A DNA stretch of 64,000 nucleotides from Candidatus Methylomirabilota bacterium (GCA_036265915.1 DATAOC010000040.1:10571-74570); one strand, 5' to 3'; positions 3,918 to 57,300 are shown, counted from the stretch's first letter. The notes: generated by a model not told the origin, from the letters alone. A program made the numbers and translations.

Positions 3918-4886
3918 ATGGCGCGCATCCTCGTCACCGGCGCCGCCGGATTCGTCGCGGTCAACATCGCCCGCGCTCTGGCCGCGCGCGGTCATCACGT
4001 CGTCGGCTTCGATCATCGCGCCGCCGACGAGGCTGCCCGCGCCCACGCGGGCGCCAGCGTGGGCTGGCTGATCGGCGACGTGCGTGACGGTCCCGCTCTC
4101 GCGCGCGCCATCAAGACGCACGCGATCGACGTGCTGGTGCACGCGGCGGCGGTCACCGCCACCACGCCGGAGTGGGAGCGCGAGCGCGCCGCCGACGTCA
4201 TCGGCGTGAACGTGCTCGGCACGATCGCCGCGCTGGAAGCCGCTCACGCGGCCGGGGTAGGACGCATCATCGTGCTCAGCTCGGCGAGCGCGGTCGGTCG
4301 CCGCGATCCGGGCGAGCCGTTCATCCCGGAGGGCGCAGCCGCGGCGCCCGGCGACCTGTACGGCATCTCCAAGCGCGCGCTCGAGATGGTGGCCAACCGG
4401 CTGGCCGAGCTGTACGCCGCCCACGTCGTGCTCGTGCGCCTGTCCCAGCCGTATGGACCGCTGGAGCGGCCGACGCCCGACCGCGCGGCGCTGTCGCCCA
4501 TCACCGACTGGATGACGGCGGCCCACGAGGGGCGATTCCTCACCACCCCGAGCCTCGAGCTCGCCAAGGACTGGATCTACATCGACGACGTCGGCGAGGC
4601 GTTCGTCCGGCTCGCGGAGGCCGGCGAGCTGCGGCACACGCTCTACAATCTCGGTCTCGGCGAGAACGTCACCGTGCGCGCGGTGATGGACGAGATCCGT
4701 CGCGCGTGGCCCCGCATCGAGGTGAGCGTCATGCCGAACTGGCGGCCGAATCCCAATCTCGCCGAGGATCGTCTGCGGCCGCCGCTCGAGATGACGCGCC
4801 TGGCGGCCGACGTCGGCTTCCGTCCTCGCCACACGATCGCCGACGGAATTGCCCGCTACGCGGAGTGGCTGCGCGGCGGGCGCTAG
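3918..4886 (+). CDS. NAD-dependent epimerase/dehydratase (SDR, extended type)
   Basis: MARILVTGAAGFVA Rossmann motif. YGISK catalytic YxxxK. Confidence 0.85.
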   Translation: MARILVTGAAGFVAVNIARALAARGHHVVGFDHRAADEAARAHAGASVGWLIGDVRDGPALARAIKTHAIDVLVHAAAVTATTPEWERERAADVIGVNVLGTIAALEAAHAAGVGRIIVLSSASAVGRRDPGEPFIPEGAAAAPGDLYGISKRALEMVANRLAELYAAHVVLVRLSQPYGPLERPTPDRAALSPITDWMTAAHEGRFLTTPSLELAKDWIYIDDVGEAFVRLAEAGELRHTLYNLGLGENVTVRAVMDEIRRAWPRIEVSVMPNWRPNPNLAEDRLRPPLEMTRLAADVGFRPRHTIADGIARYAEWLRGGR

Positions 4887-5614
4887 GCGCGCGCGAACAG
4901 CCGTCCGAAGCCGTGGATGGGCTCGCGAGCGGCGAGGACGCGCAGTGCCGACCAGATCGTCGCCTGGTTCGAGGTCACGACCGGCTTGCCCGTCCGCCGC
5001 TCCAGCGCGTCGATGGCCTCGACGGCGCGCCACGCGGTGCATGAGCACAGCAGCGCGTCGGCGTCCGGCCGGCACGCGCGCGCCGCGAAGTCGACCACCG
5101 ACTCCGGGGTCTGGTCGTTGATACCCTGGTTGCCCGAAGCCGCCGCCTCCGGATCGCCGTCGACGTTGAGCACCTCGAAGCCGGAGGCCTCGAGATACGC
5201 GCGCAGCCGCCGGTTGTTCCAGTCGGGGTACGGCGTCGCCACCGACAGGCGTCGCGCGCCGAGCGTCCGCAGGGCATCGACCACCGAGGGCGTGGTCGCC
5301 ACCGCCGGCACACCCGCCTCTCGCGCGATCAGCGCCAGCATGTCCCGATCCCAGCCGGGACCCTTGTAGAACGAGCCGGTCGTGCATCCGTAGGCGATCA
5401 CGTCGACGCGCGCGGTGGCCAGGTAGCGCGCGCCTGACTCGATCTCGTCGTTCATGCGCTTGTAGGCGTCGTCGCCGTTGGCGTCGTTGGTCATCCACAG
5501 CCGCTGGCCGTGCACGGTCACGCCGCGCGGCACGACGAGATTGAAGTCCGCCTCGCACGTGGTGTTGGTGGAGGGCACCATCACGCCAATGCGTCGCCGC
5601 ACGCCGGAAGCCAT
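4883..5614 (-). CDS. Asp/Glu/hydantoin racemase superfamily protein (maleate isomerase / arylmalonate decarboxylase-like)
   Basis: 243 aa. RIGVMVPSTNTTCE...YGCTTGSF...LCSCTAWRAVE, the two-Cys architecture of this family. Confidence 0.75.
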   Translation of the reverse strand: MASGVRRRIGVMVPSTNTTCEADFNLVVPRGVTVHGQRLWMTNDANGDDAYKRMNDEIESGARYLATARVDVIAYGCTTGSFYKGPGWDRDMLALIAREAGVPAVATTPSVVDALRTLGARRLSVATPYPDWNNRRLRAYLEASGFEVLNVDGDPEAAASGNQGINDQTPESVVDFAARACRPDADALLCSCTAWRAVEAIDALERRTGKPVVTSNQATIWSALRVLAAREPIHGFGRLFARA

Positions 5615-5635: not shown

Positions 5636-6106
5636 TCAGTCCTGGAAGCCGACGAGCCGCCAGGCGTCGCCGAGACGGCGCGCCACCTCGGGCTCGCCCT
5701 GCCACGAGAGCACCGTGACCCAGCCGAGCAGCGGAAGACGCCCCGTCACCTCGCCGGTCGTGTAAACCCATGCTGCGCCGTCGACGACCTCGACGCGGTC
5801 CACCCGGACGCTCGCCCGCAGCGCCTCGTACAGCGAGTACAGCGTGACCAGGTGCTGACGCACGTCGGGCTTGGTGATACCGCCGCTGCGGTAGTTGTCG
5901 GCGAGGTACGCGAGCACACCGCCGCTGTCGCGGGCGACGAAACGTCGGCGCGCGTCCTCCACCAGCGCGCGCAGCTCTTCGGTGGTGCTCGCGGAGGCCG
6001 GCGTCGCGACGCGCGGCGTGCTGGGGCTGGCGAGCCCGGCCGGCGGCGCCACCAGCACGGCGAGCACGGCGAAGGCAGCGACGGCGAGCGCGGCGGATCG
6101 TCTCAT
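5636..6106 (-). CDS. Secreted NTF2/SnoaL-like (DUF4440-like) protein
   Basis: N-terminal signal peptide (MRRSAALAVAAFAVLAVLVAPPAG) followed by a small alpha+beta domain. GC3 bias. Confidence 0.55.
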   Translation of the reverse strand: MRRSAALAVAAFAVLAVLVAPPAGLASPSTPRVATPASASTTEELRALVEDARRRFVARDSGGVLAYLADNYRSGGITKPDVRQHLVTLYSLYEALRASVRVDRVEVVDGAAWVYTTGEVTGRLPLLGWVTVLSWQGEPEVARRLGDAWRLVGFQD

Positions 6107-6141: not shown

Positions 6142-7335
6142 TCAGACGACGCGGGCGCGGCGCAGCTGCTCGATGTCGGCCGGCGTGTAGCCGGCCTCGG
6201 CGAGGATCTCGTCGGTGTGCTCACCGAGCGTGGGCGGCTCGCGGTCGATGCTCGGGCTGCCGTGGGCCAGGCGGAAGCCCGCGCCCACGAGCCGGAGCCG
6301 TCCGTAGCGCGTGTCGACGTCCTGGAGCACGTCCCGTGACTCGAGCTGCGGATGCTTCACGATCTCGTCGATCTTCCACACCGTGGCGCACGGCACGTCG
6401 GCGGCCGTGAGGCGCGCCTCCCACGACTTCGGCTCGTCCTTCGCGAGGGCGGCCTCGATGACCTCGCGCAGGGCCGGCTCGTTGTCGGTGCGCGCCCGCC
6501 AGTCCTTGAAGCGCGGGTCGTCGAGGGCGTCGGCGCGGCCGATGGTCCGCATCAGGCTCGCGAACTGCTTCTCGGTGAGCACGGCGAGGACGAGGTAGCC
6601 GCTGCCGGCGCGGAAGCGGTTGGCGGTCGGCTTGCGGCTCACGGAGCCGTTGCCGATCTGCTTCTGCTCGATCCCGGCCACCGTGTACTCGGACACGGGG
6701 CCGGGAATGAACGCCAGCGCGGCGTCGAGCATGGCCACGTCGACGAACTGACCCCGGCCCGTATGCGTGCGCTGGTAGAGCGCGCTGGCGACCGCGAGGG
6801 CGGCCGTGACGCCGCCGATGGTGTCGCAGATGGCGAAGCCCGCGCGCATCGGGCCGCCCGACGGCTCGCCGGTGATCGACATGATGCCCGACATCGCCTG
6901 CAGCTTGCCGTCGAAGGCGGCCGTCGTCCGTTCGGGGCCCGTGTGGCCGAAGCCGGATACGGAACAGTAGATCAGGCGCGGATTGACGGCGGCGAGCGCG
7001 TCGTAGCCGAGCCCGAGCCGGTCCATGACGCCCGGACGGAAGTTCTCCCACACGACGTCGGCGGTCGGCACCAGGCGCTTGACGACCTCCACCGCTGCCG
7101 GCTGCCGCAGATCGAGCGTGATGCTGCGCTTGTTCGCGTTGACGGCCAGGAACGACGACGCCATCTTGCGCTCCGCCCACTCCTTGCTGATCAGCAGGTG
7201 GCGCGACTCGTCGCCCTCGTGTGATTCGATCTTGACGACGTCGGCACCGAGAAGAGCGAGCTGGTACGTCCCGTAGGGACCGGCGAGATAGCGCGTGAAG
7301 TCGAGGATGCGGACGCCCGCGAACGGCTTGCTCAT
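6142..7335 (-). CDS. Family III CoA-transferase (CaiB/BaiF type)
   Basis: MSKPFAGVRILDFTRYLAGPYGT...DVVKIES N-terminal signature and ...CSVSGFGHTGP. Its ATG (7335..7333) overlaps the upstream gene's TGA (ATGA). Confidence 0.9.
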   Translation of the reverse strand: MSKPFAGVRILDFTRYLAGPYGTYQLALLGADVVKIESHEGDESRHLLISKEWAERKMASSFLAVNANKRSITLDLRQPAAVEVVKRLVPTADVVWENFRPGVMDRLGLGYDALAAVNPRLIYCSVSGFGHTGPERTTAAFDGKLQAMSGIMSITGEPSGGPMRAGFAICDTIGGVTAALAVASALYQRTHTGRGQFVDVAMLDAALAFIPGPVSEYTVAGIEQKQIGNGSVSRKPTANRFRAGSGYLVLAVLTEKQFASLMRTIGRADALDDPRFKDWRARTDNEPALREVIEAALAKDEPKSWEARLTAADVPCATVWKIDEIVKHPQLESRDVLQDVDTRYGRLRLVGAGFRLAHGSPSIDREPPTLGEHTDEILAEAGYTPADIEQLRRARVV

Positions 7336-8237
7336 GCCTGCTCGCGCTTGGCCCTGGCCACGGCCTTGATGTCATCGAACTCGCGGCGCCGCTCAGCGAT
7401 CTGCTCGGGCGTCATGCGATCGAGGTTCGAGAAGTCGAGCTTCCAGGCCGCGTCGTCATGCCAGCGCAGCGACGACTGCACCGTCGTGCGCGCGGCCGGT
7501 GCGCTCTCCAGCACCCGCAACGCCAGCTCCAGCGTGAACGCCTGCGACGGCCGGTCGAATGGCCGTCCGGCAGAGTTGCCGAGCGGGAAGTCGCTGAAGA
7601 GGAAGCGCGGCACCCCGCAGTACTCGACGATGTCCTTGGCGCAGCCCATGATGACCGTCGGCACGCCGTTCGCCTCCAGGTGTCGCGCGACCAGACTGAC
7701 CGTCTGGTGGCAGACGGGTCAGGTCGGGACGAGGAGAGCGGCATCGGCGCCATCCTCCCGGCACCGCTCCAGCAGGCTCGGCGCGTCGACCTCCATGGTC
7801 ACGCGCTGGCTGCGATTCGTGGGGGCGCCGTGCAGCCGCGGCGTGAGCGCGCCCAGGCGGCCGCGCTTGACCGCCTGCTGCAGCTCCGCCAGCGGCAGCC
7901 ACGTGTTCGGATCCTCGGCCGTCGTGTGCACGCGATCGTAGCCGACGTGCGAGATACGCAGGTCCGGGATGGTCTCGGTGGACTCCGAGTAGACCTTGTA
8001 GAACTTGGCGGCGGCGTTGTACGGCGCGCCTGGGCCCTGCTCGCCGGCGCCCGGCTGAAAGGGCGCCGCGGTGGTGATCAGCGCGAGCCGCGCCTCGGCG
8101 AGTGGCCGACGCAGCGGCGAAAACGGCACGTCGTCGAAATGCGCCCAGCGATAGGCGCCGTACCCGAGCCGCAGATAGTAGTCGCGCGTGCGCTGCATGT
8201 ACGGAATCGGCACGTCATGCTCGGCAGCGAACGCCAT
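7332..8237 (-). CDS. GrdB/PrdB-like reductase (glycine/sarcosine/betaine/D-proline reductase selenoprotein-B family). Candidate selenoprotein with an in-frame TGA at 7719..7721 read as Sec
   Basis: ORFs 7719..8546 and 7332..7664 are in the same frame and are separated only by TGA. SD AAGGAGG lies 5 nt before ATG 8237. The downstream piece has no start or SD (the listed 'M' is GTG). GC3 bias is continuous across the TGA. Read-through gives ...ALLVPT-U-PVCHQTV... (UxxC). A stem-loop sits 11 nt after the UGA. The family call is from memory. Confidence 0.6.
7690..7708 (-). ncRNA. Putative bacterial SECIS-like stem-loop (mRNA element) for the TGA at 7719..7721
   Basis: Minus-strand RNA ACCAGAC-GGUCA-GUCUGGU: 7-bp stem, 5-nt loop containing G and U, beginning 11 nt 3' of the UGA. 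An alternative mutually exclusive hairpin is CCGUCUG-CCAC-CAGACGG. Confidence 0.45.
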
Positions 8238-8283
8238 CGGCGCCTCCTTGTACCAGGCGATGGTACACCAGGCGCCGGAACGG

Positions 8284-10077
8284 TCAGCTGGCGCGCGAGC
8301 GGGCCAGCTCCTGCTCGACGAGCGCCGCGAGATCTTCCAGTGTTCGCCGGTCGGCGTCGCTGAGGTCGCGCGGCCGGTGGTCGCCGAGACACAGCGTCCC
8401 GATGCGGTGGGGGCCGATGCGGACCGGATGGCCAGCGTAGAACCGGATACGCGGCTCGCCGGCGACGAGCGGGTTGTCGGCGAAGCGCGGATCGAGCCGG
8501 GCGTCCGGGACGACGAACGGGTCGTCGCCGTGAATCGTGTAGGCACAGAACGCCGCCTCCCGCGGCGTCTCGCGAATGTCGATGCCGCTCGTGGACTTGA
8601 ACCACTGCCGCTCCTCGTCGACGAGGGTCACCAGCGCCATCGGCACGTCGAACACCCGCCGGGCCAGGCGTGTCAGCCGATCGAACCGCTCCTCCGACGG
8701 CGTGTCGAGCAGCTGGAGCCGACGCAGCGCCTCCACCCGGTCGGGCTCGTCGACCGGCGCCGGCGCCGACACCCAGCGGCACGCCTGACGCAGCGCCCAC
8801 GCGCGAATCCGCGTGCGGGCGTACACGAGCGAGAACGGCGCCACCAGCCAGTCGGTGACGCCGGCCTCGGCTCCGCCGGCCCGGTCCGCTTCGGATTCGC
8901 GCGCGGCGACCATGACGATCGGCAGGTCGGCCGCGTCGTGCCGGAGCATGCGCGCGAGCTCGAGGCCGTCGTCGCCGCCGAGCCGGCGTCCGAGGAGCAG
9001 CAGCGAGGGGGGCGTCACGCGGACGAGGGAGACGGCCTCGTCGGGCGTCTTGGCGATCATCACCGTGAAGCCGTCGACACGCGCCGCATCGGCGAGCCGC
9101 TCGCGCAGCGCCGTCTGCGCCACCGCGACCAGGACGGACTGCGCGAGCGCTCGGCACGGCACCGCCGACTCTGCGTCCACGGGCGAGGGCGGGGCGGTCG
9201 CGTGCCGCACGGCATGCTGAGCGCCGCGCACGTCGAGCGTCTGTCCCTCCGCGGCTGCGAACAGATCGACGGTCGACGCGGTGCGCCGCGCCGCCGCGAC
9301 GACAGCGTCGAGGCCGGCGTCGTCGCGGTGCGGGTCGTGGTGGAAGAGCGCGACGCGGCGGACATCGGCGTCACGGGCGAGCGTCGCCACCGAGTCGACC
9401 GTGCTGTGCCCCCAGCCGATCTTGCTCGCGTACTCCGCGACGGTGTACTGCGCGTCGTGGATGAGGAGATCCGCTCCGGCGAGGAACTGCGCGTGGCGCC
9501 GGTCCTCGCCGGTCAGCTCGCCGGCGAGGCCCTCGGCGAGCGCGCGGCTGTGAGGCTCGTGATCGGTTGCGTACACCAGCGTGGCGCCGTCGGCCTCGAG
9601 CCGATAGCCGAGGGTGAGCGCGGGATGATTGAGATAGCGCGTGCTCACGCGGATGTCGCCGATGGCGAACTCGCCCTCCACGAGATCGTGATAGCGGACA
9701 GTGGCGGCGAACTGCTCGAGCGTGATCGGGAAATAGGTGTACTGCATCTGTCCGGCGAGCGTCTCGCGGAGCGACTCGCGCAGGCCTCGCGGCGCGTAGA
9801 CATCCCACTCGTCGCCCGGCGCGAAGAGCGGCGCGAAGAACGGAAAGCCCTGGATGTGATCCCAGTGCGTGTGCGTGATGAGGATGTGGCCGCGCCGCGG
9901 CCCCCGCTGCGCCATGAGCGCGTGCCCGAGCGCATGCGCCCCGGTGCCGCAGTCGAGCACCAGCAACAGGCCGGAATCCGAGCGCACTTCCACGCAGGAG
10001 GTATTGCCGCCGTAGCGAACGGTGCCCGCACCCGGCTTGGCGATGGAGCCCCGCGTTCCCCAGAACCGAACTCGCAT
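8284..10077 (-). CDS. Multidomain protein: MBL-fold metallo-hydrolase + pseudo-receiver + GAF domain
   Basis: 597 aa from ATG 10077 (SD AGGAGG). HTHWDH metal-binding motif. Middle REC-like domain with the phospho-acceptor position substituted (LLLLGRRL). C-terminal GAF (…FCAYTIHGDDPFVVPDARLDPRF…). Confidence 0.75.
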   Translation of the reverse strand: MRVRFWGTRGSIAKPGAGTVRYGGNTSCVEVRSDSGLLLVLDCGTGAHALGHALMAQRGPRRGHILITHTHWDHIQGFPFFAPLFAPGDEWDVYAPRGLRESLRETLAGQMQYTYFPITLEQFAATVRYHDLVEGEFAIGDIRVSTRYLNHPALTLGYRLEADGATLVYATDHEPHSRALAEGLAGELTGEDRRHAQFLAGADLLIHDAQYTVAEYASKIGWGHSTVDSVATLARDADVRRVALFHHDPHRDDAGLDAVVAAARRTASTVDLFAAAEGQTLDVRGAQHAVRHATAPPSPVDAESAVPCRALAQSVLVAVAQTALRERLADAARVDGFTVMIAKTPDEAVSLVRVTPPSLLLLGRRLGGDDGLELARMLRHDAADLPIVMVAARESEADRAGGAEAGVTDWLVAPFSLVYARTRIRAWALRQACRWVSAPAPVDEPDRVEALRRLQLLDTPSEERFDRLTRLARRVFDVPMALVTLVDEERQWFKSTSGIDIRETPREAAFCAYTIHGDDPFVVPDARLDPRFADNPLVAGEPRIRFYAGHPVRIGPHRIGTLCLGDHRPRDLSDADRRTLEDLAALVEQELARSRAS

Positions 10078-10191
10078 CAAACCCTCCTGAGCGTGCCAGA
10101 GAGAGATGCCACAAGTCGGGCGTGTGCGAAAGGCCCTGGGGAAGGCGCCTCGTCGTCGCGTATGATGGCGCCTCACCGGTGGAGGTGAGGC

Positions 10192-11088
10192 ATGGCAAAC
10201 GTGCAGCTGGCGCGGGTGGCGCGCCCGGAGGGCGCGGCGTGGGGCATCGTCGCCGACGACCACATCGAGCTCGTGGCCACGGATGCGGGGACGAACGGCG
10301 GCTTCTTCGCGTCGCTTTTGCAGCTTCCGCGCCCTGCCCGCGCGCTGGCCGAGCGTCGCCGCGGGGCGCCGTCGCTGAAGCTCGCGGACGTCGTCGCGGC
10401 GCCGGTCGGCGGCAACGCGCCGCATCTGCTGCCCCCGCTGGACCTGCAAGAAGTCTGGGCGGCGGGGGTGACGTACGAGCGCAGTCGCGTGGCGCGCATG
10501 GAGGAGACCGCGGGCGCCGAGACGTTCTACGACAAGGTCTACACGGCCGAGCGCCCCGAGCTGTTCTTCAAGGGCGCCGCTTCGCGGGTGAGCGGACACA
10601 ACGGGCCGATCCGCATCCGCCGCGACGCCACCTGGAACGTGCCGGAGCCCGAGATCGCGGTCCTGGTCACCGCGCACGGCGAGGTCGCCGGCTACTGCAT
10701 CGGCAACGACGTCAGCTCACGCGACATCGAAGGCGAGAACCCGCTCTATCTCCCGCAAGCGAAGATCTACCGGCAGTCGTGCGCGCTCGGCCCGGTGGTG
10801 TGGCTGACCGACGAGGAGTCGGCACCGGTGTTCGACATCGCCATCAGCATCCAGCGTCGCGGCGCCGTCGTCTACGACGGCAAGATCTCGACCTCGTCGA
10901 TGCGCCGGTCGTTCGCCGACCTTGCCGGCTGGCTCGTGCGCGACAACGTGTTTCCCGCCGGCGCCTACCTCCTCACCGGGACCGGGCTCGTGCCCGAGTC
11001 GGGATTCACGCTGAGCGTCGACGATCGCGTGTCGATCACCGTGCCCCGGCTGGGCACGCTGGCCAACCACGTCGTCCAGGACCCATGA
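10192..11088 (+). CDS. Fumarylacetoacetate hydrolase (FAH) family protein
   Basis: 298 aa. FAH-family C-terminal fold (…GNDVSSRDIEGENPLYLPQAKIY…). SD GGAGGTGAGG. Confidence 0.85.
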   Translation: MANVQLARVARPEGAAWGIVADDHIELVATDAGTNGGFFASLLQLPRPARALAERRRGAPSLKLADVVAAPVGGNAPHLLPPLDLQEVWAAGVTYERSRVARMEETAGAETFYDKVYTAERPELFFKGAASRVSGHNGPIRIRRDATWNVPEPEIAVLVTAHGEVAGYCIGNDVSSRDIEGENPLYLPQAKIYRQSCALGPVVWLTDEESAPVFDIAISIQRRGAVVYDGKISTSSMRRSFADLAGWLVRDNVFPAGAYLLTGTGLVPESGFTLSVDDRVSITVPRLGTLANHVVQDP

Positions 11089-11663
11089 ACGCGCACGGGC
11101 ACCTGCCCAAGGCCGATCCGGCCGAGCTGGCTCCGGAGCTGCGCCGGCGGCTCGAGGTGTGGTTCGACAAGGCCTACCGCGACGACAACCTGTTCCTCAC
11201 GCTGGCGCGCGAGCCGGCGGTGCTCGACCTGTTCCTGGGCTGGGTATCGCTGATCTACACGGAGCGCGCGCGCCTGGAGCCCAAGGTCGTGGAGCTGTGC
11301 CGCATCCGGCTCGCCGCCCGCAACGCCTGCGTGCACTGAAGCCTCGCGCGTAGCGCATCGTTGATGCGCAACGGGCTGACGGGGGCGGAGGTCGATGCAG
11401 CGCTCGGCGATCTCGACGCCGCCACGGCCCTGCCGCCGGCGACGGTGACCGCCTTGCGCCTGGCCGACCGGCTCACGGAGCCGGCGCCGCGCGTCGATCG
11501 CGAGTTCTACGCGGAGCTGCGGCGGCACTTCGACGAAGGCCAGATCCTGGCCCTCGGTGCCGCGCTGTCGGTCGCCTCGGGCTGGCAGCGTTTCATCGAG
11601 GCCTTCGGGATCCGCCCTGACGGCTGGACGGAGGCGACCCCGGTGCCCGGGCGCCCGACCTAG
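11085..11663 (+). CDS. Carboxymuconolactone decarboxylase / AhpD-like (peroxidase-related) protein. Candidate selenoprotein with an in-frame TGA at 11337..11339 read as Sec
   Basis: ATG 11085 overlaps the FAH stop (ATGA). The first 84 codons end ...RNACVH-TGA. TGA is in frame with ORF 11361..11663, whose 'M' is TTG inside the hairpin loop. Read-through gives the CxxU motif CVHU at the position of the AhpD/CMD CxxC. A hairpin begins 14 nt after the TGA. Total length about 192 aa, matching peroxidase-related CMD proteins. Confidence 0.6.
11353..11369 (+). ncRNA. Putative bacterial SECIS-like stem-loop for the TGA at 11337..11339
   Basis: GCGCAUC-GUU-GAUGCGC: perfect 7-bp stem, G/U loop, 13-nt spacer after the UGA. 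Confidence 0.45.
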
Positions 11664-13553: not shown

Positions 13554-15146
13554 ATGATCGTCAAGGGCGCGTGGCCGGACGTCAGCATCCCCGAGGTGCC
13601 GATCACGGAGTACGTGCTGCGCCACGCGGCGCGGCTGCGTGACAAGCCGGCCATGATCGACGGCCCGAGCGGACGCACGCTCACCTACGGCCAGCTCGAG
13701 GACAGCATCCGTCGGGTGGCGACCGCCCTGTCGCGGCGCGGATTCCGCAAGGGCGATGTCTTCGCGATCTACAGCCCGAACCTGCCGGAATACGCGGTGA
13801 TCTTCAACGCGGTGGCCAGCCTCGGCGGCGTGAACACGACCGTCAATCCGCTGTACACGGCCGGCGAGCTGGCCAACCAGCTGAAGGACTCCGGCGCGCG
13901 CTTCCTGATCACCGTGCCGGCGTTCCTCGACAAGGCGCGCGAGGCCGCGGCCGCCGTCGGCCTCACCGAGGTGTACGTGTTCGGCTCCGCGGAGGGCGCA
14001 CGACCGTTTGCCGAGCTGCTGGAGGCGCCGCCGACGCCGCCCGTGGTGCGGATCGATCCCCGGCGTGACGTGGTGGCGCTGCCGTACTCGAGCGGCACCA
14101 CCGGGTTGCCCAAGGGCGTCATGCTGACGCACTACAACCTCGTCGCCAACCTGAGCCAGTGCGAGGGCGCGCGGGACTTCGACGGCTTCAAGGAGTCCGA
14201 CGTCATCATCGCCGTGCTGCCGTTCTTCCACATCTACGGCCTCGTGGTGATCATGAAGCTCGGTCTTTGCCAGGGCGGCACGATCCTCAGCATGCCCCGC
14301 TTCGACTTCGCCGAGTTCCTGGCCGCGATGCAGAAGTACCGGGTGAGCATCGCGCCGCTGGTGCCGCCCATCGTGCTCGGCATGGTCAAGAGCCCGGCTG
14401 TCCGCCGGGAGGACCTCGCCAGCGTGCGTCTCGTCTTCTCGGGCGCAGCGCCGCTGGGCGAAGACATCGCCCGCGCGCTCAGCACGAAGCTCGGCTGCCC
14501 CGTCGTGCAGGGCTACGGGATGACGGAAGCCAGCCCCGTCACGCACCTGAGCCCGACGAAGAACGCCCCGTTCCGGCCGGGCTCGATCGGCCTCGTGGTG
14601 CCGAACACGGAGGTGAAGCTGGTGGCCATCGACGGCGCCGGCGAGGTCGGCCGCGGCGAGGAAGGCGAGCTCTGGATCCGCGGGCCGCAGATCATGAAGG
14701 GCTATCTGAACCAGCCCGAGGAGACGGCGGCCGCCATCGATCCGGAAGGCTGGTACCACACCGGCGACGTCGGGTACGTGGACGACCAGGGCTGGTTCTA
14801 CATCGTCGACCGCACCAAGGAGCTCATCAAGTACAAGGGCATGCAGGTGGCACCGGCCGAGCTGGAGGCGCTGCTGCTCACCCACCCGGCCGTGCTCGAC
14901 GCCGCCGTCATCCGCAAGGCCGACGAGGAAGCGGGCGAGGTGCCCAAGGCGTTCGTCGTCCTGAAGGCCGACGCCGAGTCGCGCGCGATCACCGCCGAGG
15001 CGGTCATGGCGTTCGTTGCCGAGCGGGTGGCGCCGCACAAGCGCATCCGTCATCTGGAGTTCACGGACCAGATCCCGAAGTCGGCGTCCGGCAAGATCCT
15101 GCGGCGTCTGCTCGTGCAGAAGGAGACGGCGGCGGCGCGGCGGTGA
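13554..15146 (+). CDS. AMP-binding acyl/aryl-CoA ligase (4-coumarate-CoA ligase-like)
   Basis: YSSGTTGLPKGV, GYGMTE and ...YKGMQVAPAELE... adenylate-forming signatures. Confidence 0.9.
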   Translation: MIVKGAWPDVSIPEVPITEYVLRHAARLRDKPAMIDGPSGRTLTYGQLEDSIRRVATALSRRGFRKGDVFAIYSPNLPEYAVIFNAVASLGGVNTTVNPLYTAGELANQLKDSGARFLITVPAFLDKAREAAAAVGLTEVYVFGSAEGARPFAELLEAPPTPPVVRIDPRRDVVALPYSSGTTGLPKGVMLTHYNLVANLSQCEGARDFDGFKESDVIIAVLPFFHIYGLVVIMKLGLCQGGTILSMPRFDFAEFLAAMQKYRVSIAPLVPPIVLGMVKSPAVRREDLASVRLVFSGAAPLGEDIARALSTKLGCPVVQGYGMTEASPVTHLSPTKNAPFRPGSIGLVVPNTEVKLVAIDGAGEVGRGEEGELWIRGPQIMKGYLNQPEETAAAIDPEGWYHTGDVGYVDDQGWFYIVDRTKELIKYKGMQVAPAELEALLLTHPAVLDAAVIRKADEEAGEVPKAFVVLKADAESRAITAEAVMAFVAERVAPHKRIRHLEFTDQIPKSASGKILRRLLVQKETAAARR

Positions 15147-16276
15147 AGCGCCTGCTCCATCCCTTCGTTCTGGTCGTCACCGCCATCCTGGTCGTCGGCT
15201 ACGCGTACCTCGCGTGGCGACTCACGGCGACGCCGCTCGCCCGGATCGCGCTGGCACTGCCGTTCGCGTTGATCTGGACGGTGCCGGTCGTCTACTGGAT
15301 GGGCGATCGCGAGCACGTCGGCGCCGTGCACGAGATCGTCCACGCGAGCAGTTACCTCTGCATGGGCTGGCTGAACTTCGTGTTGGTGCTGACGGTGGCC
15401 CGCGACGCGCTGCTGCTCCTCACCGCGCTGCCGGTGTCGGCCGCGGCGGCGCACGCGGCCCTCCGGGATGACGGCGTCGGCTGGGTGCTGGTCGGTTCCG
15501 TGATCGCGCTTGCGCTCGGGGTCCTCACCGCGCGGCGGGGTCCGCACGTCCGCCGCGTCGACATCCGCGTCGACGGCCTGGCGCCCGATCTCGATGGGCT
15601 GCGCATCGCGCAGATCAGTGACCTGCACGTCGGGCCCACGATCGGGTCCGCCTACGTGCAGCGCGTCGTCGACATGACCCGCGCGCTGGCGCCCGATCTG
15701 GTCGCGCTCACCGGCGACATCGTCGATGGCTCCGTTCCGCGCCTGGCCCCGCACGTGGCGCCGCTGGGAGCGCTGGCCGGCGATCGCGCGTTCCTCGTGC
15801 TCGGCAACCACGATTACTACGCAGGCGCCGAGCGCTGGACCGCGCACTTCGAGACGATGGGATTTCGCGTGCTGCGCAACTCGCACGTCACCATCGCGCG
15901 CGGTGCGGCGCGCCTGCTGATCGGCGGCGTGATCGACTTCGCCGCGCGGATGCGGGACGCCTCCGCACGCCCGCGGCCGGACCTCGCGCGCGACGCGGCG
16001 CCGGCCGCCTACCGGGTCCTGCTCGCGCACAACCCGAAGATCGCCCCGCAGGCCGAGGAGGCGGGGTTCGACCTGCAGCTGTCGGGGCACACGCACGCCG
16101 GGCAGTTCTTCCCGTGGACGCTGGCCGTGCGCCTGATCCATGCGCCACACGCGGCCGGCCTGTCACGGCGCGGCCGCATGTGGGTCTACGTCAGCGCCGG
16201 CACCGGGACATGGGGACCGCCCGTGCGCTTCGGCACCACGCCGGAGCTGACGCTGCTGCGACTGGTCGCGACCTGA
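15143..16276 (+). CDS. Membrane-anchored metallophosphoesterase (calcineurin-like)
   Basis: GTG start overlapping the upstream stop (GTGA). N-terminal TM helices. ISDLHVG, GDIVDG, GNHDY and GHTHAG phosphoesterase motifs. Confidence 0.8.
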   Translation: MKRLLHPFVLVVTAILVVGYAYLAWRLTATPLARIALALPFALIWTVPVVYWMGDREHVGAVHEIVHASSYLCMGWLNFVLVLTVARDALLLLTALPVSAAAAHAALRDDGVGWVLVGSVIALALGVLTARRGPHVRRVDIRVDGLAPDLDGLRIAQISDLHVGPTIGSAYVQRVVDMTRALAPDLVALTGDIVDGSVPRLAPHVAPLGALAGDRAFLVLGNHDYYAGAERWTAHFETMGFRVLRNSHVTIARGAARLLIGGVIDFAARMRDASARPRPDLARDAAPAAYRVLLAHNPKIAPQAEEAGFDLQLSGHTHAGQFFPWTLAVRLIHAPHAAGLSRRGRMWVYVSAGTGTWGPPVRFGTTPELTLLRLVAT

Positions 16277-16285
16277 GGCGACGCG

Positions 16286-16813
16286 CTACGAGGCGGCGGC
16301 GCGCCGTGAGGGAGGCGGCGCGGCCACGCGCGCCGGCGGCTTGATGGCGCCGAGTCGCCGGTGATCCCAGTTCGGACAGCCGACGGCGTGGGCCACCACG
16401 ATCGACGTGAGATCGTCGTTGCAGCGAGGGCAGGCGAGCCCGCGCTCGGTGCGCACGACCCAGCCGAGACGGTACGTCTCCTGACAGCGCTCGCACGGGA
16501 CCGCGTGCTGGCTGCAGTAGAGGAACAGGATCGCGCGCGCATCGATATCCAGCACGTCGACGTGCTCGATCTCGCGCGGCACGATGATCCACCGGCCCGC
16601 CGCCAGCGCCGAGCTGCGGTCGCCGGGCGCCCGCCGCTCTTCGCGCGGGCTCGCCGCCGGCGCTGCGTCCAGGCGGCTCCCCGGCTCGGACGCGCGGCGG
16701 TCGAGCACCACGCGAATGCCCGAGCCGTCGAGCGCTTGCTGGAGACGACGGCACGCCGCCAGTTCGGCGCGAGGTACGACGACCAGGAGCGACGGTGAGG
16801 GTTGTGGGTTCAT
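16286..16813 (-). CDS. Hypothetical protein with a four-Cys zinc-ribbon-like C-terminus
   Basis: SD GGAGG 5 nt before ATG 16813. CERC...CPRC pair. No family recognised. Confidence 0.45.
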   Translation of the reverse strand: MNPQPSPSLLVVVPRAELAACRRLQQALDGSGIRVVLDRRASEPGSRLDAAPAASPREERRAPGDRSSALAAGRWIIVPREIEHVDVLDIDARAILFLYCSQHAVPCERCQETYRLGWVVRTERGLACPRCNDDLTSIVVAHAVGCPNWDHRRLGAIKPPARVAAPPPSRRAAAS

Positions 16814-16976
16814 GGGGTCCTCCGTTTCCACATCCAGACTACGAACTCGGTGCGCGCGCGACGCTGCTTTTTTCGCGGCCGTCGACGACGTGCCGAAGGG
16901 GCACGTGGCGACCGCCCGCTGCCCAGCCGTTGTTCACATGTCTCTCATCGTGCCATGCGGCGCCGATCGCTGTACG

Positions 16977-18602
16977 ATGCGCGCGATGACCAGCCCCGCG
17001 CCGCGCAGTCGGACGCTTGGCGATCTGCTCGACGAGATCGCGCAGACCCGGGCCGACGCCGATGCGGTGATCTATGCCGGCGAGCGGCTCACCTGGGCCG
17101 CCCTTCGCGCGCGCGTCGACGCCCTCGCGCGCGCGCTGCTGGCGGCCGGCGTGCGTCGCGGCGACCGCGTCGCCGTGCTGCTTCCGAACCGTCCCGAGTG
17201 GCTCGTGGCGGCGTTCGCCAGCGCCAGGATCGGCGCGGTCACCGTCGGCGTGAGCACGTTTTCGGCGCCGCCCGAGATCGCGTGGACGATCGCGCATTGC
17301 CGTCCGGCGGCGATCGTGACCATGGAGAGCTTCCGCGGACGCAGCTACCTGGCGCCGCTCTACGCGGCGTGTCCCGAGCTCGCGGCATCGACGCCGGGCG
17401 CGCTGCGCAGCGAGACGCTGCCCGAGCTGCGCGCGGTCATCGCCATCGACGCCCGCCGCCACGATGGCGTGGCGCGGCTCGATGACTTCATGACGCGCGC
17501 CTCCGAGGCGCCCGCCCGGGCGCTCGCGGACGCGCAGCGCGCCGTCACCGCGCCCGACCCGTGCTTCATCCTCTACACGTCGGGCTCGACGGCCACGCCC
17601 AAGGGCGTGGTGCTGCATCACGGCAGCCTCGTCGACAACGGCTTCGGCATCGGCGAGCGGATGCGGCTGACCGGCGCCGATCGCGTGTGGCTGGCGGTGC
17701 CGCTGTTCTGGTCCTTCGGCTCCGCCAACGCGCTGCCCGCGCTGCTGACGCACGGCGGTTCGCTCGTGCTCCAGGATGCGTTCGAGCCGGGCGAGGCGCT
17801 GGCGCTGCTGGATGAGGCGCGCTGCACCGTGTACTACGGCATGCCGAACATGGCGCGCGCGATGCTCGAGCATCCCGACCGTCGGCGCCGCGCGCTGGCC
17901 ACGATGCGCACGGGGCTCACGATCGGCCTGCCCGAGGATTTCGAGATGACGATGGACGCGGTGGCGGCGCGTGAGCTGTGCAACGTCTACGGCTCCACCG
18001 AGACCTACGGCAACTGCGCGGTGACCGACGCACACGACGACGTCACGCTCCGGCGCGAGAGCCAGGGCCGTCCGCTGCCCGGGATGACGATCCGCGTGGT
18101 CGAGCCCGAGACGGGCCGGCCGTTGCCCGCCGGCGAGGTGGGGGAGTTTCGCGTGAAGGGCCATGTGACGTCCGGCTACTACAACGACGCCGAGCAGACG
18201 CGCGCCGCGTTCGACGCCGAGGGCTTCTTCGTCACCGGCGACCGGGGGCTGATCGGCGACGACGGGCGCGTGCGGTTCCGCGGACGGCTCAAGGAGATGA
18301 TCAAGACGGGCGGCATCAACGTGGCGCCGCTGGAGGTCGAGGCCGTGCTGCTCGCCCACGTCGCCGTCAAGCAGGCGTACGTGGTCGGTGTGCCCGACCG
18401 CGTGCGCGGCGAGGTCGTGGTGGCTGCCGTCGAGTTGCACGACGGCGCGCCCGTGTCGGCGGAGGCGCTGGCCGCCCACTGCCGGCAGCGCCTGGCCGGC
18501 TACAAGGTGCCGGCACGCTTCGTGTTCCGGAAGGCCGACGAGTTTCCTCGCACGCCGACAGGCAAGGTGCAGAAGCCCCGGCTGCGTGACGAGCTCGCCT
18601 GA
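16977..18602 (+). CDS. AMP-dependent synthetase/ligase (acyl-CoA synthetase family)
   Basis: YTSGSTATPKGV, YGSTE, ...GDRG..., ...PTGKVQK. Start taken at the first ATG after the junk N-terminus (16977 or 16986). Confidence 0.85.
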   Translation: MRAMTSPAPRSRTLGDLLDEIAQTRADADAVIYAGERLTWAALRARVDALARALLAAGVRRGDRVAVLLPNRPEWLVAAFASARIGAVTVGVSTFSAPPEIAWTIAHCRPAAIVTMESFRGRSYLAPLYAACPELAASTPGALRSETLPELRAVIAIDARRHDGVARLDDFMTRASEAPARALADAQRAVTAPDPCFILYTSGSTATPKGVVLHHGSLVDNGFGIGERMRLTGADRVWLAVPLFWSFGSANALPALLTHGGSLVLQDAFEPGEALALLDEARCTVYYGMPNMARAMLEHPDRRRRALATMRTGLTIGLPEDFEMTMDAVAARELCNVYGSTETYGNCAVTDAHDDVTLRRESQGRPLPGMTIRVVEPETGRPLPAGEVGEFRVKGHVTSGYYNDAEQTRAAFDAEGFFVTGDRGLIGDDGRVRFRGRLKEMIKTGGINVAPLEVEAVLLAHVAVKQAYVVGVPDRVRGEVVVAAVELHDGAPVSAEALAAHCRQRLAGYKVPARFVFRKADEFPRTPTGKVQKPRLRDELA

Positions 18603-18664
18603 GCTCCCAGCGACAACGGCGCGGCGTTGACAGCGCGGCGCCGAGGCTGCTACACCCGGTCGGG

Positions 18665-19648
18665 ATGTCGAGCCCTCCCCGAGTCGTCATGGACCCCGGC
18701 CAGACGTACCGCCGTCTCGTACCGGTCGATCACCTGGCATCGCGCGTGACGCCGACCGACGACGTCTACGTCATCGCCCACATGGGGATCGCCCGCGTGG
18801 ACGTCGCGGCGTGGCGGCTGCGCGTCGACGGCCTCGTGGAGCGCCCGCTGGAGCTCGACTACGCCATGCTGACGCAGCTGCCGGCCACGGAGGTGACCGC
18901 CGTGCTCGAGTGCTTCGGCAACCCGGTCGAGCCGGACGTGGCGACGCGGCGGGTCGGCAACGTGGTCTGGCGGGGTGTGCGCCTCGGCGAGCTGCTCGAG
19001 CGCGCAGGCGTGAGCGCCGAAGCGCGCTACGTGTGTCCGGAGGGCCTGGACTCCGGGACGTTTGCGGGCGTCCACAGCGAGCGCTACGTCAAGGACTTGC
19101 CGCTGGCGCGCGCACTGGACGCCGACGTGCTGGTGGCGTGGGCGATGAACGGCGCGCCGCTGTCGCCGGAGCACGGCTTTCCGGCGCGCGTGTTCGTGCC
19201 CGGCTACTTCGGCACCAACGCGGTGAAGTGGCTCTGCCGGCTGACCCTCGCTGCCGAGCGTCCGGAGAGCCTCTTCACCACCCGGCTCTACAACCGCCGC
19301 GTCGACGGCGAGAGCCGTCCGGTGCGCGAGCTCGACGTCCACGCCGTCATCGTCGCGCCGGCCGACGGCGCCACGCTGCGGCCCGGGCGCCACACGATCA
19401 CCGGCTGGGCGTGGAGCGCCTGGCCCGTGCGCGCGGTGGAGGTCAGCACCGACGATGGCGCGCGGTGGCAGGACGCGGAGGTGACGCCGCGCGGCGCCGA
19501 CCATCAGTGGCAGCGGTTCACGTACGCCTGGAACGTCGCGACGCCCGGCCGCTACGCCGTGCACGCCCGCGCCGCGGATGCGCGCGGACGCGTGCAGCCG
19601 GCGGCCGGCCGCAATCGCACCCACAGCATCAGCGTCGCCGTGGCCTGA
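18665..19648 (+). CDS. Molybdopterin-dependent oxidoreductase, sulfite-oxidase family (Moco-binding + dimerisation domains), cytoplasmic
   Basis: ...LECFGNP..., ...GYFGTNAVKWL..., plus a C-terminal Ig-like domain. No signal peptide. Confidence 0.8.
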   Translation: MSSPPRVVMDPGQTYRRLVPVDHLASRVTPTDDVYVIAHMGIARVDVAAWRLRVDGLVERPLELDYAMLTQLPATEVTAVLECFGNPVEPDVATRRVGNVVWRGVRLGELLERAGVSAEARYVCPEGLDSGTFAGVHSERYVKDLPLARALDADVLVAWAMNGAPLSPEHGFPARVFVPGYFGTNAVKWLCRLTLAAERPESLFTTRLYNRRVDGESRPVRELDVHAVIVAPADGATLRPGRHTITGWAWSAWPVRAVEVSTDDGARWQDAEVTPRGADHQWQRFTYAWNVATPGRYAVHARAADARGRVQPAAGRNRTHSISVAVA

Positions 19649-54374: not shown

Positions 54375-57300
54375 CTACATCCGGCGGACGCGCTCCACCG
54401 TCGCCTGCATCTGCTCCACGCGCGACCACCGCCGCAGCGACTCGGCGAGCGCGGGCTCGGGGGCGGCGGCCGCGATGGCGACGAGCGTTCGCTCCGCGAG
54501 CTCGGCGGCCGCCCGCGCCTTCTCGGCGGCCCCGAGCTGCATGTTGGCGCGCGCGAGCACGTCGGCGGCCTGCCACGTCAGGGTCGGGTAGGCGATCCGC
54601 CGCGCGATGCTCACCGCACGATCCAGGCTGGCCACGGCGGCCGCCGCGTCGCCGGCGCGCAGCGCGATCTCGCCGCGCCGCGCATGGAACCAGCCCACGT
54701 ACTTCAGCGAGTCCGTCTGCTCGGCCTCGGCCAGGCCGCGATCGGCGAGCGTCAGCGCCTCCTCGTCGCGACCGAGCGCCATGAGCGCGGTGGTGATGCC
54801 GAACGAGAGGTGGATCGCCCAGCGCCAGCGGTGCGCGCCGAAGGCCTTGCGCGCGCGCTCGAGCGTCTGCTCGAAGAGCGCGAGCGCGGGCTGGGGCCCC
54901 TTGAGCGCGAGGTCGCTGAAGCCGAGGTCGATGAGGGCGCTGATCTCCACGTTGCCGTTCTTGATGCGGCGGCCGATGTCGCGGCTCTCGCTGTTGACGT
55001 CGACGGCGCCCGCGAAGTCGCCATACTCCTGCCGCAGCCACCCGAAGGTGTTGCCCATGCGGGCGAACATGAAATGGTTCTCGCGGTCGCGCGCGAGGGC
55101 GCGGCCCTGGGCGAGCGTGTCCCACGCGACGCGATAGTCGCCTCGGCCGATGTGCGCGAAGCAGCGGTTCGACATCGCGAACACCTCGCTGAAGCCGTCG
55201 TGGATCTCGCGCGCCGCCCTCTCGGTATCGAGCGACATGGCGATGGCGTCGTCGAAGCGGCCCTGCCAGCACCGCTGGACGCCGAGCAGCGGCGCCACCT
55301 GCACCACGATGTCTCGATGCTGGCCCCGGCGCGCCAGCGCCACCGCCTCGTCGAACTCCGCCTCGGCCTCGGTGAGGCGCGCCTGCATCTGATCGAGCGA
55401 GCCCAGCAGGAACAGCGTGCGCGCCAGCAGGCGCTCGTCGCCGATCTCGCGTGCGATCTCGTGCGCCCGGCGCACGTTCGTTTCGAGCTCGCCGATCTCG
55501 TCCCACGACAAGGCCATGTAGTGGCAGTAGGCGATCTCGGCGTACGCCTCCGCCTCCAGCCGCCGATCGCCGTCGGCGCGCGCGTACTCGAGCATCTTGC
55601 GCGCGTCGGCGCGCGCCTCGTCCAGCCGTGCCACCGTGGTGAGGACCTGCGCACGGCGCTGGTGCACCTCCGCCAGCCGCGCCCCGGCCACCGGCGGGGT
55701 CGCGCGGGCGCCCGCCTCCAGCGCGCGCGTATACCAGTCGAGCGCGGTGGTGTTGGCCGACGCCTCGCGCGCGCGCGCGCCGGAGCGGACGAGGTAGTCG
55801 AACGCCTTCGCCCACTCCTCACCCTCCGAGAAGTGGTGGGCGAGCTCCTCGTAGTGCTCGGCGAGCCGGTCCGGATAGAGCTCCTCCAGCGCGAAGGCCA
55901 CGCTGCGGTGCAGCTCGCGCCGCCGCTCGCGGAGCAGGCTGTTGTAGGCGACGTCCTGGATCACGGCGTGCTTGAAGATGTAGGCCGGCTCCGGGAGCAG
56001 GCCCTCCTGGTAGATGATCTCCAGCGCCTGCAGCTCGCGCAGCAGCCCGTCGAGCTGCTGGCTCATCCCCGACACGCGGCTGAGCAGCCTCACCAGGAAC
56101 TGCCGGCCGATGACCGAGGCCAGCTGCACCGCGCGCTTGCCCTCGTCGCCGAGCCGATCCAGGCGCGCCATGATGATGTCGTGGATCGTCTCCGGTACGT
56201 CGATCGTCTCGGGGCCGCTCACGAGCACCAGGCGATCGCCCTCGCGCCGCACCACACCGAGGTCGAGCAGCGTCTTGGCGACCTCCTCGATGAAGAGCGG
56301 CACGCCCTCGGCTTTCTGGGTCAGCGCGGCCAGCAGCTCGGGCGGCAGATCGGCGACCCCGAGCACGCCGCGGGCGACGGCGAGCGCGTCGGCGGCGCCC
56401 AGCGTCGTGAGCGAGATCGTCGTGTAATAGCTGCGCGAGCCGAACGGCGGCGCGTAGCCGATGCGGTAGGTGAGGATCACCATCACGGCCACGCCGGCGA
56501 GCGACTCCATCAGCGAGCCGAGGAACTCCTCGCTGCCGGAGTCCATCCAGTGCAGATCCTCGACCACGAGCACCACCGGCCGCAGCTGCGCGCCGCGCAT
56601 GGTGAGCGCGCGCAGCGCGGCGAAGGCCAGCCGCCGGCGATTTGGCGCATCCATCGCGGTGACCGTCGGGTCGCCGGGATCGACCGAGAGCAGGTAGCGG
56701 ATGAACGGCACGTGCGCCTCGAGGCCGCCCATGCGCCGCGTGAGCGCCTCGATCTTGGCGATGATCTCCGGCTCGCCGTCGAACTCCTCGATCCCGAAAT
56801 TCTTCCGCAGCAGGTCGATCAGCGGCAGGAACGGAATCGACTGCCCGAAGGAGACGCACTGGCCTTCCACCCAGCTCACGGGACGCCCCGCGTCCGCCAG
56901 CCGCCGGCGGAACTCGTAGAGCAGCCGCGACTTCCCCATGCCCGCATCGCCGACGAGGAACACCGCCTGGCCGTGGCCGGCCTCGACGTCGGCGAAGCGC
57001 GCGAGCAGCGTCTGCAGCTCGCGGTCGCGGCCGACGAACGGGGTGAGACCGCGCTCGTGGCCGACCGCGACGCGCGAGCGCGCGCCGCGCGTGCGCACGA
57101 CCTGCCATGCCCGCACGGGCTCGTGGCCCTTCACCTCGAGGCGGCCGAGGTCGAGCGTCTCGAAGAAGCCCTCGATCGCCCGGTGCGTTGCCTCGCTCAC
57201 GACCACCGTGCCCGGGCGCGCCGTCTGCTGCATCCGCGCCGCGAGGTTCGTGGTGTCGCCGACCGCCGTGTAGTCCATGCGCAGGTCGTCACCGATGGCG

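Follow-up and report, generated by a model that had tools for sequence, protein, structure and literature searches.

The stretch analysed here, called the window throughout, comprises 64,000 nucleotides of a Candidatus Methylomirabilota bacterium (GCA_036265915.1, DATAOC010000040.1:10571-74570). Its G+C content is about 71% throughout the 64 kb, its sequence is held identically by soil metagenome contigs of the Joint Genome Institute (JGI), and the closest genomes are metagenome-assembled genomes (MAGs) of Candidatus Rokuibacteriota/Methylomirabilota. Between positions 6142 and 11663 lie two genes that each contain one in-frame TGA, a PrdB/GrdB-like gene on the minus strand (hereafter PrdB-like) and an AhpD-like gene on the plus strand, separated by 3.6 kb. 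They are accompanied by genes for a family III CoA-transferase, for a protein with MBL-fold, pseudo-receiver and GAF domains (MBL-REC-GAF) and for a member of the FAH family. The explanation that we favour, with good confidence, is that both are genuine selenocysteine (Sec) genes in two divergent units, that each coding sequence contains its own SelB-type selenocysteine insertion sequence (SECIS), by which the UGA is recoded, and that the closeness of the two is specific to the lineage. Gene calls rest on a listing of open reading frames (ORFs), translation, and scans with Pfam and NCBIfam; they bear out the gene order, the coordinates, the 46-nt gap and both ATGA couplings given in a preliminary description of this DNA. 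The features are the following:

7332-8237, minus strand: PrdB/GrdB-like selenoprotein gene of 301 codons, with one internal TGA at 7719-7721 (predicted U173, in the motif U173-P-V-C176)

7691-7707, minus strand: candidate bacterial SECIS (bSECIS)-type hairpin of the PrdB-like gene, CCAGAC-GGUCA-GUCUGG, starting 11 nt past the UGA, with G-U in the apical loop

11085-11663, plus strand: AhpD-core/CMD-family selenoprotein gene of 192 codons, with one internal TGA at 11337-11339 (predicted U85, in the motif C82-V-H-U85)

11353-11369, plus strand: candidate bSECIS-type hairpin of the AhpD-like gene, GCGCAUC-GUU-GAUGCGC, starting 13 nt past the UGA, with G-U in the loop

6142-7335, minus strand: family III (CaiB/BaiF-type) CoA-transferase, CoA_transf_3 (PF02515, 387.6 bits)

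8284-10077, minus strand: MBL-fold, pseudo-receiver and GAF protein (Pfam Lactamase_B_2, Response_reg, GAF)

10192-11088, plus strand: FAH-family gene (PF01557, 66 bits)

5636-6106, minus strand: protein of 156 amino acids with, by eye, a signal-peptide-like amino-terminus and no Pfam family match

4883-5614, minus strand: Amdase/Asp-Glu-racemase (EutA-like) protein (Pfam Amdase, 128.7 bits)

On the minus strand, the MBL-REC-GAF gene is followed by the 46-nt gap (8238-8283) and the PrdB-like gene, which shares an ATGA overlap (7332-7335) with the CoA-transferase gene. Gaps of 35 and 21 nt then lead from the CoA-transferase gene to the 156-residue gene and on to the Amdase-like gene, and these last two may share a transcript with the CoA-transferase. 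On the plus strand, the FAH and AhpD-like genes are joined by a second ATGA overlap (11085-11088). A divergent intergenic region of 114 nt (10078-10191) separates the two units; the two Sec genes share neither strand nor transcription unit.

The codon at the in-frame TGA was compared among relatives; the PrdB-like loci total at least 582 and the AhpD-like loci at least 397, and 80 of each were examined. For the PrdB-like gene, the 80 loci are from GTDB species representatives (L004-L083) and, together with two contigs of the source organism, provide 83 copies of the gene. Of these, 38 have TGA at the codon, 36 from independent species-level genomes and two from the source-organism contigs, and 45 have TGC or TGT. 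TGA forms are present in all 10 Rokubacteria and in many Alpha- and Gammaproteobacteria; the marine alphaproteobacterial MAGs L029, L033 and L034 have the same TGA and the same hairpin. In the database, the 120 best homologues of the protein (67-75% identity, full length) all have cysteine at this column, reading CPVC for UPVC. One Rokuibacteriota MAG contig (L013, JBOHQB010000540.1) contains two PrdB-like Sec paralogues about 5 kb apart (L013:10508 and L013:15852), both with the TGA and the same hairpin; a CoA-transferase gene follows the first one only.

For the AhpD-like gene, TGA is found at this codon in 80 of 80 metagenome loci, at 65-88% identity. Full-length relatives of the protein are few and distant and contain CVHC at the place of the window's CVHU. 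Close relatives (75-89% identity) have all been called as fragments, either carboxy-terminal, from the first methionine past the TGA, or amino-terminal, ending in ...CVH. Four relatives (P0123, P0124, P0125 and P0127) are deposited with glycine at the Sec position (CVH-G-SLARSASL), most likely a gene-caller artefact in which UGA was read by code 25, hiding selenoproteins.

The hairpin of the PrdB-like gene is nearly always paired (99.5% of cells, in 31 distinct Sec-form sequences), and its closing C-G pair is replaced by U-A, a compensatory change, in three sequences. The comparison of Sec with Cys forms is the decisive control for this predicted element. All six pairs are possible in 29 of 30 Sec forms and in two of 45 Cys forms, and third codon positions within the hairpin have an entropy of 0.17 bit in Sec forms versus 1.01 bit in Cys forms, while outside the hairpin the value is 1.30 bit in both. 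In the window itself (7700-7722, minus strand), the codon choices GTC...ACG yield a competing 7-bp hairpin, CCGUCUG/CAGACGG, which engages the UGA region in pairing and shares nucleotides with the 5' arm of the SECIS. Most relatives do not have this hairpin; L009, whose sequence is identical over that stretch, presumably shares it.

The hairpin of the AhpD-like gene is paired in 100% of cells, in 55 distinct sequences. Its nucleotides are near-invariant and the synonymous sites on its flanks vary. The changes that do occur are all wobble-compatible: U-A becomes U-G in 24 sequences, G-C becomes G-U once and C-G becomes U-G once. The A/G change exchanges methionine for valine in the protein, yet preserves the U-A/U-G pairing. 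Candidate SECIS-type hairpins are predicted 11 and 13 nt past the respective UGA; the preliminary description had proposed looking for SelB-binding elements nearby. The minimal SECIS of E. coli fdhF is reportedly an upper stem-loop of about 17 nt, at 11-13 nt from the UGA, with G-U in the apical loop. The predicted hairpins of the window resemble it in their location within the reading frame, in the spacing of 11-13 nt, in their size of about 17 nt and in the G-U of the loop. They differ in that their sequences are unrelated and no bulged U is evident, and they are candidates by sequence.

Both TGAs are predicted to be Sec codons because cysteine and Sec are exchanged at the exact codon, homology is unbroken, the hairpins are conserved and synonymous positions are frozen specifically in Sec forms. 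Alignments obtained with tblastn cross both TGAs without interruption at 85-86% identity, and three independent assemblies of the window sequence agree. That one or both TGAs are instead true stops, in a split gene, a pseudogene or through a sequencing error, which would leave a cluster of ordinary catabolic genes, has a negligible probability. Gene callers do split both genes, with pieces of 172 and 105 amino acids in the JGI calls, and many database entries are fragments. However, the identical TGA recurs in the 38 PrdB-like copies and the 80 AhpD-like metagenome loci, protein conservation persists past it, other homologues have a Cys codon at the same column, and a conserved hairpin is present only where the codon is TGA. 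A true stop is effectively refuted already, and the argument of the preliminary description, that two in-frame UGAs so close together do not point to a sequencing error or pseudogene, agrees with the recurrence of the TGA, the Cys column, the conservation after the TGA and the hairpins. The same description had named a true stop at either TGA as what would reduce the cluster to ordinary genes; the codons of homologues and the alignments across the TGA speak against it.

A genome-wide reassignment of UGA to tryptophan or glycine (code 4 or 25), in place of a site-specific Sec, would account for the glycine deposited at the Sec position of some AhpD-like relatives. In the window, TGA ordinarily serves as a stop: it terminates 35 of the 54 predicted ORFs, some with a Pfam match complete up to that point, and this excludes a reassigned code. 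In addition, the column in homologues is cysteine and not tryptophan or glycine, and the glycine calls are best put down to the code-25 gene caller. The chance that reassignment is the explanation is accordingly minute.

The PrdB-like protein reaches the gathering threshold of PF07355 (GRDB; 27.7 versus 22 bits), with residues 30-172 aligned to positions 207-347 of the 347-position profile. The profile stops at residue 172, directly before Sec173; it appears to have been built from UGA-truncated sequences and hence to be blind to the conserved carboxy-terminal half of the family. With the PrdB model TIGR04483, homology extends across about 210 residues (E = 3e-22), at a score of 79.2 bits for a curated cut-off of 300. 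The GrdB-type models TIGR01917, TIGR01918, NF040794 and NF040795 give 31-38 bits, below their cut-offs of 65-800. Public pipelines name the relatives 'glycine/betaine/sarcosine/D-proline reductase family selenoprotein B'. Sequence searches of the PDB with the protein and with its profile returned no relative. Pfam families for PrdA, GrdA, GrdE, GrdC and GrdD are absent among the window proteins scanned, and also from the representatives of 10 recurrent neighbour clusters of the 80 loci, the remaining clusters being unscanned. We regard the protein, from its sequence, as an orphan and not as a true PrdB or GrdB, because the equivalog cut-offs are missed widely, a UxxCxxC motif is absent and there are no partner subunits.

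The AhpD-like protein scores 29.7 bits with PF02627, above the gathering threshold of 23, and the E...CxxC of the CMD proteins 7xw1, 2ijc and 2o4d (PA0269) in the PDB aligns with E70, C82 and U85 (E = 1.5e-6). Its scores with TIGR01926 (peroxidase-related; 28 versus 81.8 bits) and NF053654 (YciW-related (seleno)protein; 29.7 versus 310 bits) do not reach the cut-offs. The active-site signature of AhpD is E-x11-C-x2-C-x3-H. In the window protein, E70 and C82 of this signature are kept, Sec85 occupies the place of the second cysteine and Arg89 that of the histidine, and a histidine (His84) is located inside the motif.

The neighbourhoods were compared by tblastn with the window proteins and by de novo clustering of neighbouring ORFs, 'directly downstream' being defined as within 200 nt. 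Among 77 informative PrdB-like loci (34 Sec and 43 Cys forms), the CoA-transferase gene is adjacent in 28, distributed over Rokubacteria and Alpha-, Beta- and Gammaproteobacteria. It lies directly downstream in 10 of 10 Rokubacteria, in 22 of the 34 Sec forms, three of which have a more distant family III paralogue (less than 50% identity) in this position, and in six of the 43 Cys forms. The remaining genes that recur beside the PrdB-like gene (ClpA/ClpS, FemAB-like, TrmO, AzlC and others) are housekeeping synteny of the Bradyrhizobium type. The CoA-transferase is the sole broadly conserved partner of the PrdB-like gene, and the two form a translationally coupled, evolutionarily conserved pair. 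Its match to PF02515 is full-length (profile positions 2-366 of 366), and it reaches no NCBIfam equivalog cut-off, the best being that of succinate-glutarate CoA-transferase (286 versus 750 bits). Coupling to a CoA-transferase is much commoner among Sec than among Cys forms, in numbers uncorrected for relatedness, and the difference may reflect phylogeny rather than function.

None of the other genes shows such breadth. In the 80 genomes outside the source lineage, including the 10 Rokubacteria, the PrdB-like gene has no AhpD-like or FAH gene within about 10 kb, and MBL-REC-GAF is represented near it by two partial matches only. Linkage of MBL-REC-GAF to the PrdB-like gene is limited to the two contigs of the same organism (L001 and L002) and to L096 and L097, two closely related metagenome contigs that are also the only ones in which the complete layout of the window recurs. 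Of 57 informative AhpD-like loci, seven, all of at least 83% identity, have the FAH gene next upstream, and 14 have an unrelated MBL-fold gene of 352 amino acids there. Distant Sec-form AhpD-like relatives (L102-L162) are often located just downstream of this MBL-fold gene (Lactamase_B and B_lactamase-like_C) and often beside a cytosine/purine/allantoin-type permease gene, which is often downstream, a context unlike the FAH pairing of the window. Only four close relatives, L090, L091, L096 and L097, retain the 156-residue and Amdase-like genes nearby; in the first two of them, the Amdase-like and FAH genes directly face each other.

The preliminary description had joined these genes in one co-regulated, selenium-dependent redox/CoA module. 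Its PrdB-like/CoA-transferase part stands, with the pair present in all 10 Rokubacteria and joined by an ATGA in the window, while the five-gene module is not supported, the AhpD-like and FAH genes being absent near the PrdB-like gene in all 80 genomes. The comparison of gene neighbourhoods that it had suggested shows the CoA-transferase kept broadly, and MBL-REC-GAF, FAH and AhpD-like genes kept only in close relatives. If all five (or seven) genes nevertheless formed one co-regulated pathway, the AhpD-like CxxU protein could, for example, be a dedicated reductant recycling the Se-S form of the PrdB-like enzyme, with FAH and CoA-transferase processing the carbon skeleton and MBL-REC-GAF as regulator. 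A CxxU partner would make chemical sense for a UxxC enzyme, the units have the 114-nt divergent region in common, the full layout is repeated in L096 and L097, and in L088 and L090 the units stay close in a different arrangement, where the CoA-transferase gene, on the opposite strand, lies some 2 kb past the AhpD-like gene. Most AhpD-like loci, however, have other neighbours (the MBL-fold gene, a permease, transporters), and the evidence for linkage is weak because the supporting loci are all close relatives (83-88% identity) and hence not independent. Such a pathway is unlikely. The pattern fits single-lineage synteny at least as well as a functional module, and we take the proximity of the two units to be specific to this lineage and not a conserved selenium module.

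Several points weigh against our explanation of two separately recoded Sec genes brought together within one lineage. Covariation in the hairpins is thin, comprising one compensatory pair and three wobble changes, and the hairpins are mostly invariant. Rfam gave no relevant match, either over the whole window at gathering thresholds or in both SECIS regions at permissive E-values. The minimum free energy fold of the window's PrdB-like mRNA favours the competing hairpin containing the UGA and has a non-significant z-score; single-sequence folding is not diagnostic here, the SECIS of this gene having been found by comparative analysis. Motif and Pfam scans of about 50 window proteins revealed no selA, selB or selD, and ARAGORN found no tRNA-Sec in the 64 kb, so that the Sec trait of the organism is inferred and not seen. 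An AlphaFold model of a Cys homologue of the PrdB-like protein (pLDDT 79, pTM 0.83) has no significant match in the PDB. In four informative close relatives, with two different arrangements, the CoA-transferase and AhpD-like genes are no more than about 2-4 kb apart, and this closeness despite rearrangement hints at a selective linkage that a reading as synteny may undervalue. Finally, everything proposed on the substrate and the chemistry of the two proteins is inference.

The remaining genes provide some context. In MBL-REC-GAF, the receiver domain (43 bits with Pfam) has G363, alanine and alanine at the positions of CheY D57, T87 and K109; the label 'pseudo-receiver' given to it earlier is correct, as the alignment with CheY places Gly363 where the phospho-acceptor aspartate would be. 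The MBL part has a weak match to NCBIfam NF041851, a cyclic-nucleotide-degrading phosphodiesterase, and the identical JGI gene is tagged Pfam Anti-Pycsar_Apyc1. The protein is probably a signalling protein, and the features of its MBL and GAF parts suggest that it acts in cyclic-nucleotide signalling, not in metabolism. The FAH protein has only weak NCBIfam matches, to the AraD1/GguC family. Just downstream of the cluster (13554-19648, plus strand), two acyl-CoA synthetase (AMP-binding) genes and a sulfite-oxidase-type molybdopterin oxidoreductase gene are located. Elsewhere, the window contains two sets of branched-chain amino-acid ABC transporter genes, luciferase-like monooxygenases and, at 54375-57914, a protein of 1179 amino acids with zinc-ribbon, adenylate-cyclase, AAA and TPR parts.

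In the mechanism that we propose for the minus-strand unit, the CoA-transferase would make or consume an acyl-CoA, and the selenolate of the PrdB-like protein would perform either a reductive cleavage of the PrdB type or a thiol/selenol redox step on the carboxylate or acyl-CoA handled by the transferase. Sec173 would be the nucleophile and Cys176 the resolving residue, as in PrdB, with no pyruvoyl partner (PrdA/GrdE) involved. The Se-S bond left behind would be re-reduced by a cellular thiol system; the motif and Pfam scans revealed no thioredoxin system among the about 50 window proteins scanned. In the plus-strand unit, an enzyme of FAH fold is coupled to an AhpD-core protein with Sec in place of the second cysteine of CxxC, and this AhpD-like protein may be a selenol-based disulfide or peroxide reductase. 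A bolder combination, which we think quite improbable, is that the PrdB-like protein and the CoA-transferase constitute a widespread two-enzyme system for reductive, PrdB-type C-X cleavage on a CoA-activated acid, spanning Rokubacteria and Alpha-, Beta- and Gammaproteobacteria. In it, the thioester would replace the pyruvoyl cofactor of the Stickland reductases, and the AhpD-like protein would have been recruited as reductant in this lineage.

Gene calling routinely turns both genes into truncated fragments, and the window is a clean example for correcting the annotation of the selenoproteome of soil Rokubacteria. The pairing of PrdB-like gene and CoA-transferase, undescribed and reasonably conserved, is a testable lead to the substrate class of the orphan 'PrdB' family, which is abundant in ocean and soil metagenomes. 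A five-gene selenium module, in contrast, would not generalise past one lineage.

When compared with PrdB (TIGR04483) and with GrdB, GrdF and GrdH (PF07355), the PrdB-like protein shares the homology over about 210 residues, a Sec that is first in UxxC and the coexistence of Sec and Cys forms. The end of PF07355 just before its Sec fits the same Sec position as in PrdB and GrdB. The PrdB-like protein differs from GrdB in length (301 versus about 430 amino acids) and in its motif, U-P-V-C-H-Q-T, which lacks the third cysteine of UxxCxxC. No PrdA/GrdE pyruvoyl proprotein, GrdA, GrdC/D or PrdC is encoded nearby; their place is taken by the family III CoA-transferase. The PrdB-like protein, moreover, is found in Rokubacteria and in mostly aerobic Proteobacteria rather than in Stickland fermenters. 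In the Sargasso Sea and Global Ocean Sampling (GOS) surveys, 'Proline reductase PrdB' (pfam07355, UxxC) ranks with the most abundant selenoprotein families (PMC1088965, PMC2398784). The protein of the window resembles it in its pfam07355 assignment, its UxxC and the large number of both Sec and Cys forms among free-living bacteria, and the two, compared by description and not by sequence, are probably the same orphan family. Linkage to a CoA-transferase and members from Rokubacteria are unreported in these surveys (PMC1088965, PMC2398784).

The AhpD-like protein has in common with the AhpD-core/CMD family the PF02627 match, E70 and the C82-x-x-U85 motif, CxxU being also that of catalogued selenoproteins. 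Unlike the family, it has Arg89 for the signature histidine and a histidine inside C-V-H-U, and its subfamily is all Sec (80 of 80 loci). In the GOS survey, selenoproteins termed 'AhpD-like 2 / CMD domain' (pfam02627, CxxU) are more abundant in non-marine samples (PMC2398784). Described selenoprotein operons comprise grdA-grdB, prdB-prdC, frhA-frhD-hdrA, Prx-like/AhpD-like, SAO and Tso (review PMC13188914). The locus is similar to these in having two selenoprotein genes a few kb apart; it differs in that they are on opposite strands, in different units, and kept together in one lineage only, and a PrdB-like/AhpD-like pairing is not listed (PMC13188914). The literature searched contains no PrdB-like/CoA-transferase pair, no PrdB-like/AhpD-like cluster and no relevant account of selenocysteine in Rokubacteria. 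The earlier remark that no pathway of this composition has been described holds for that literature, yet both families are already catalogued (PMC1088965, PMC2398784, PMC13188914): the two genes are new members of catalogued selenoprotein families, from an under-studied phylum.

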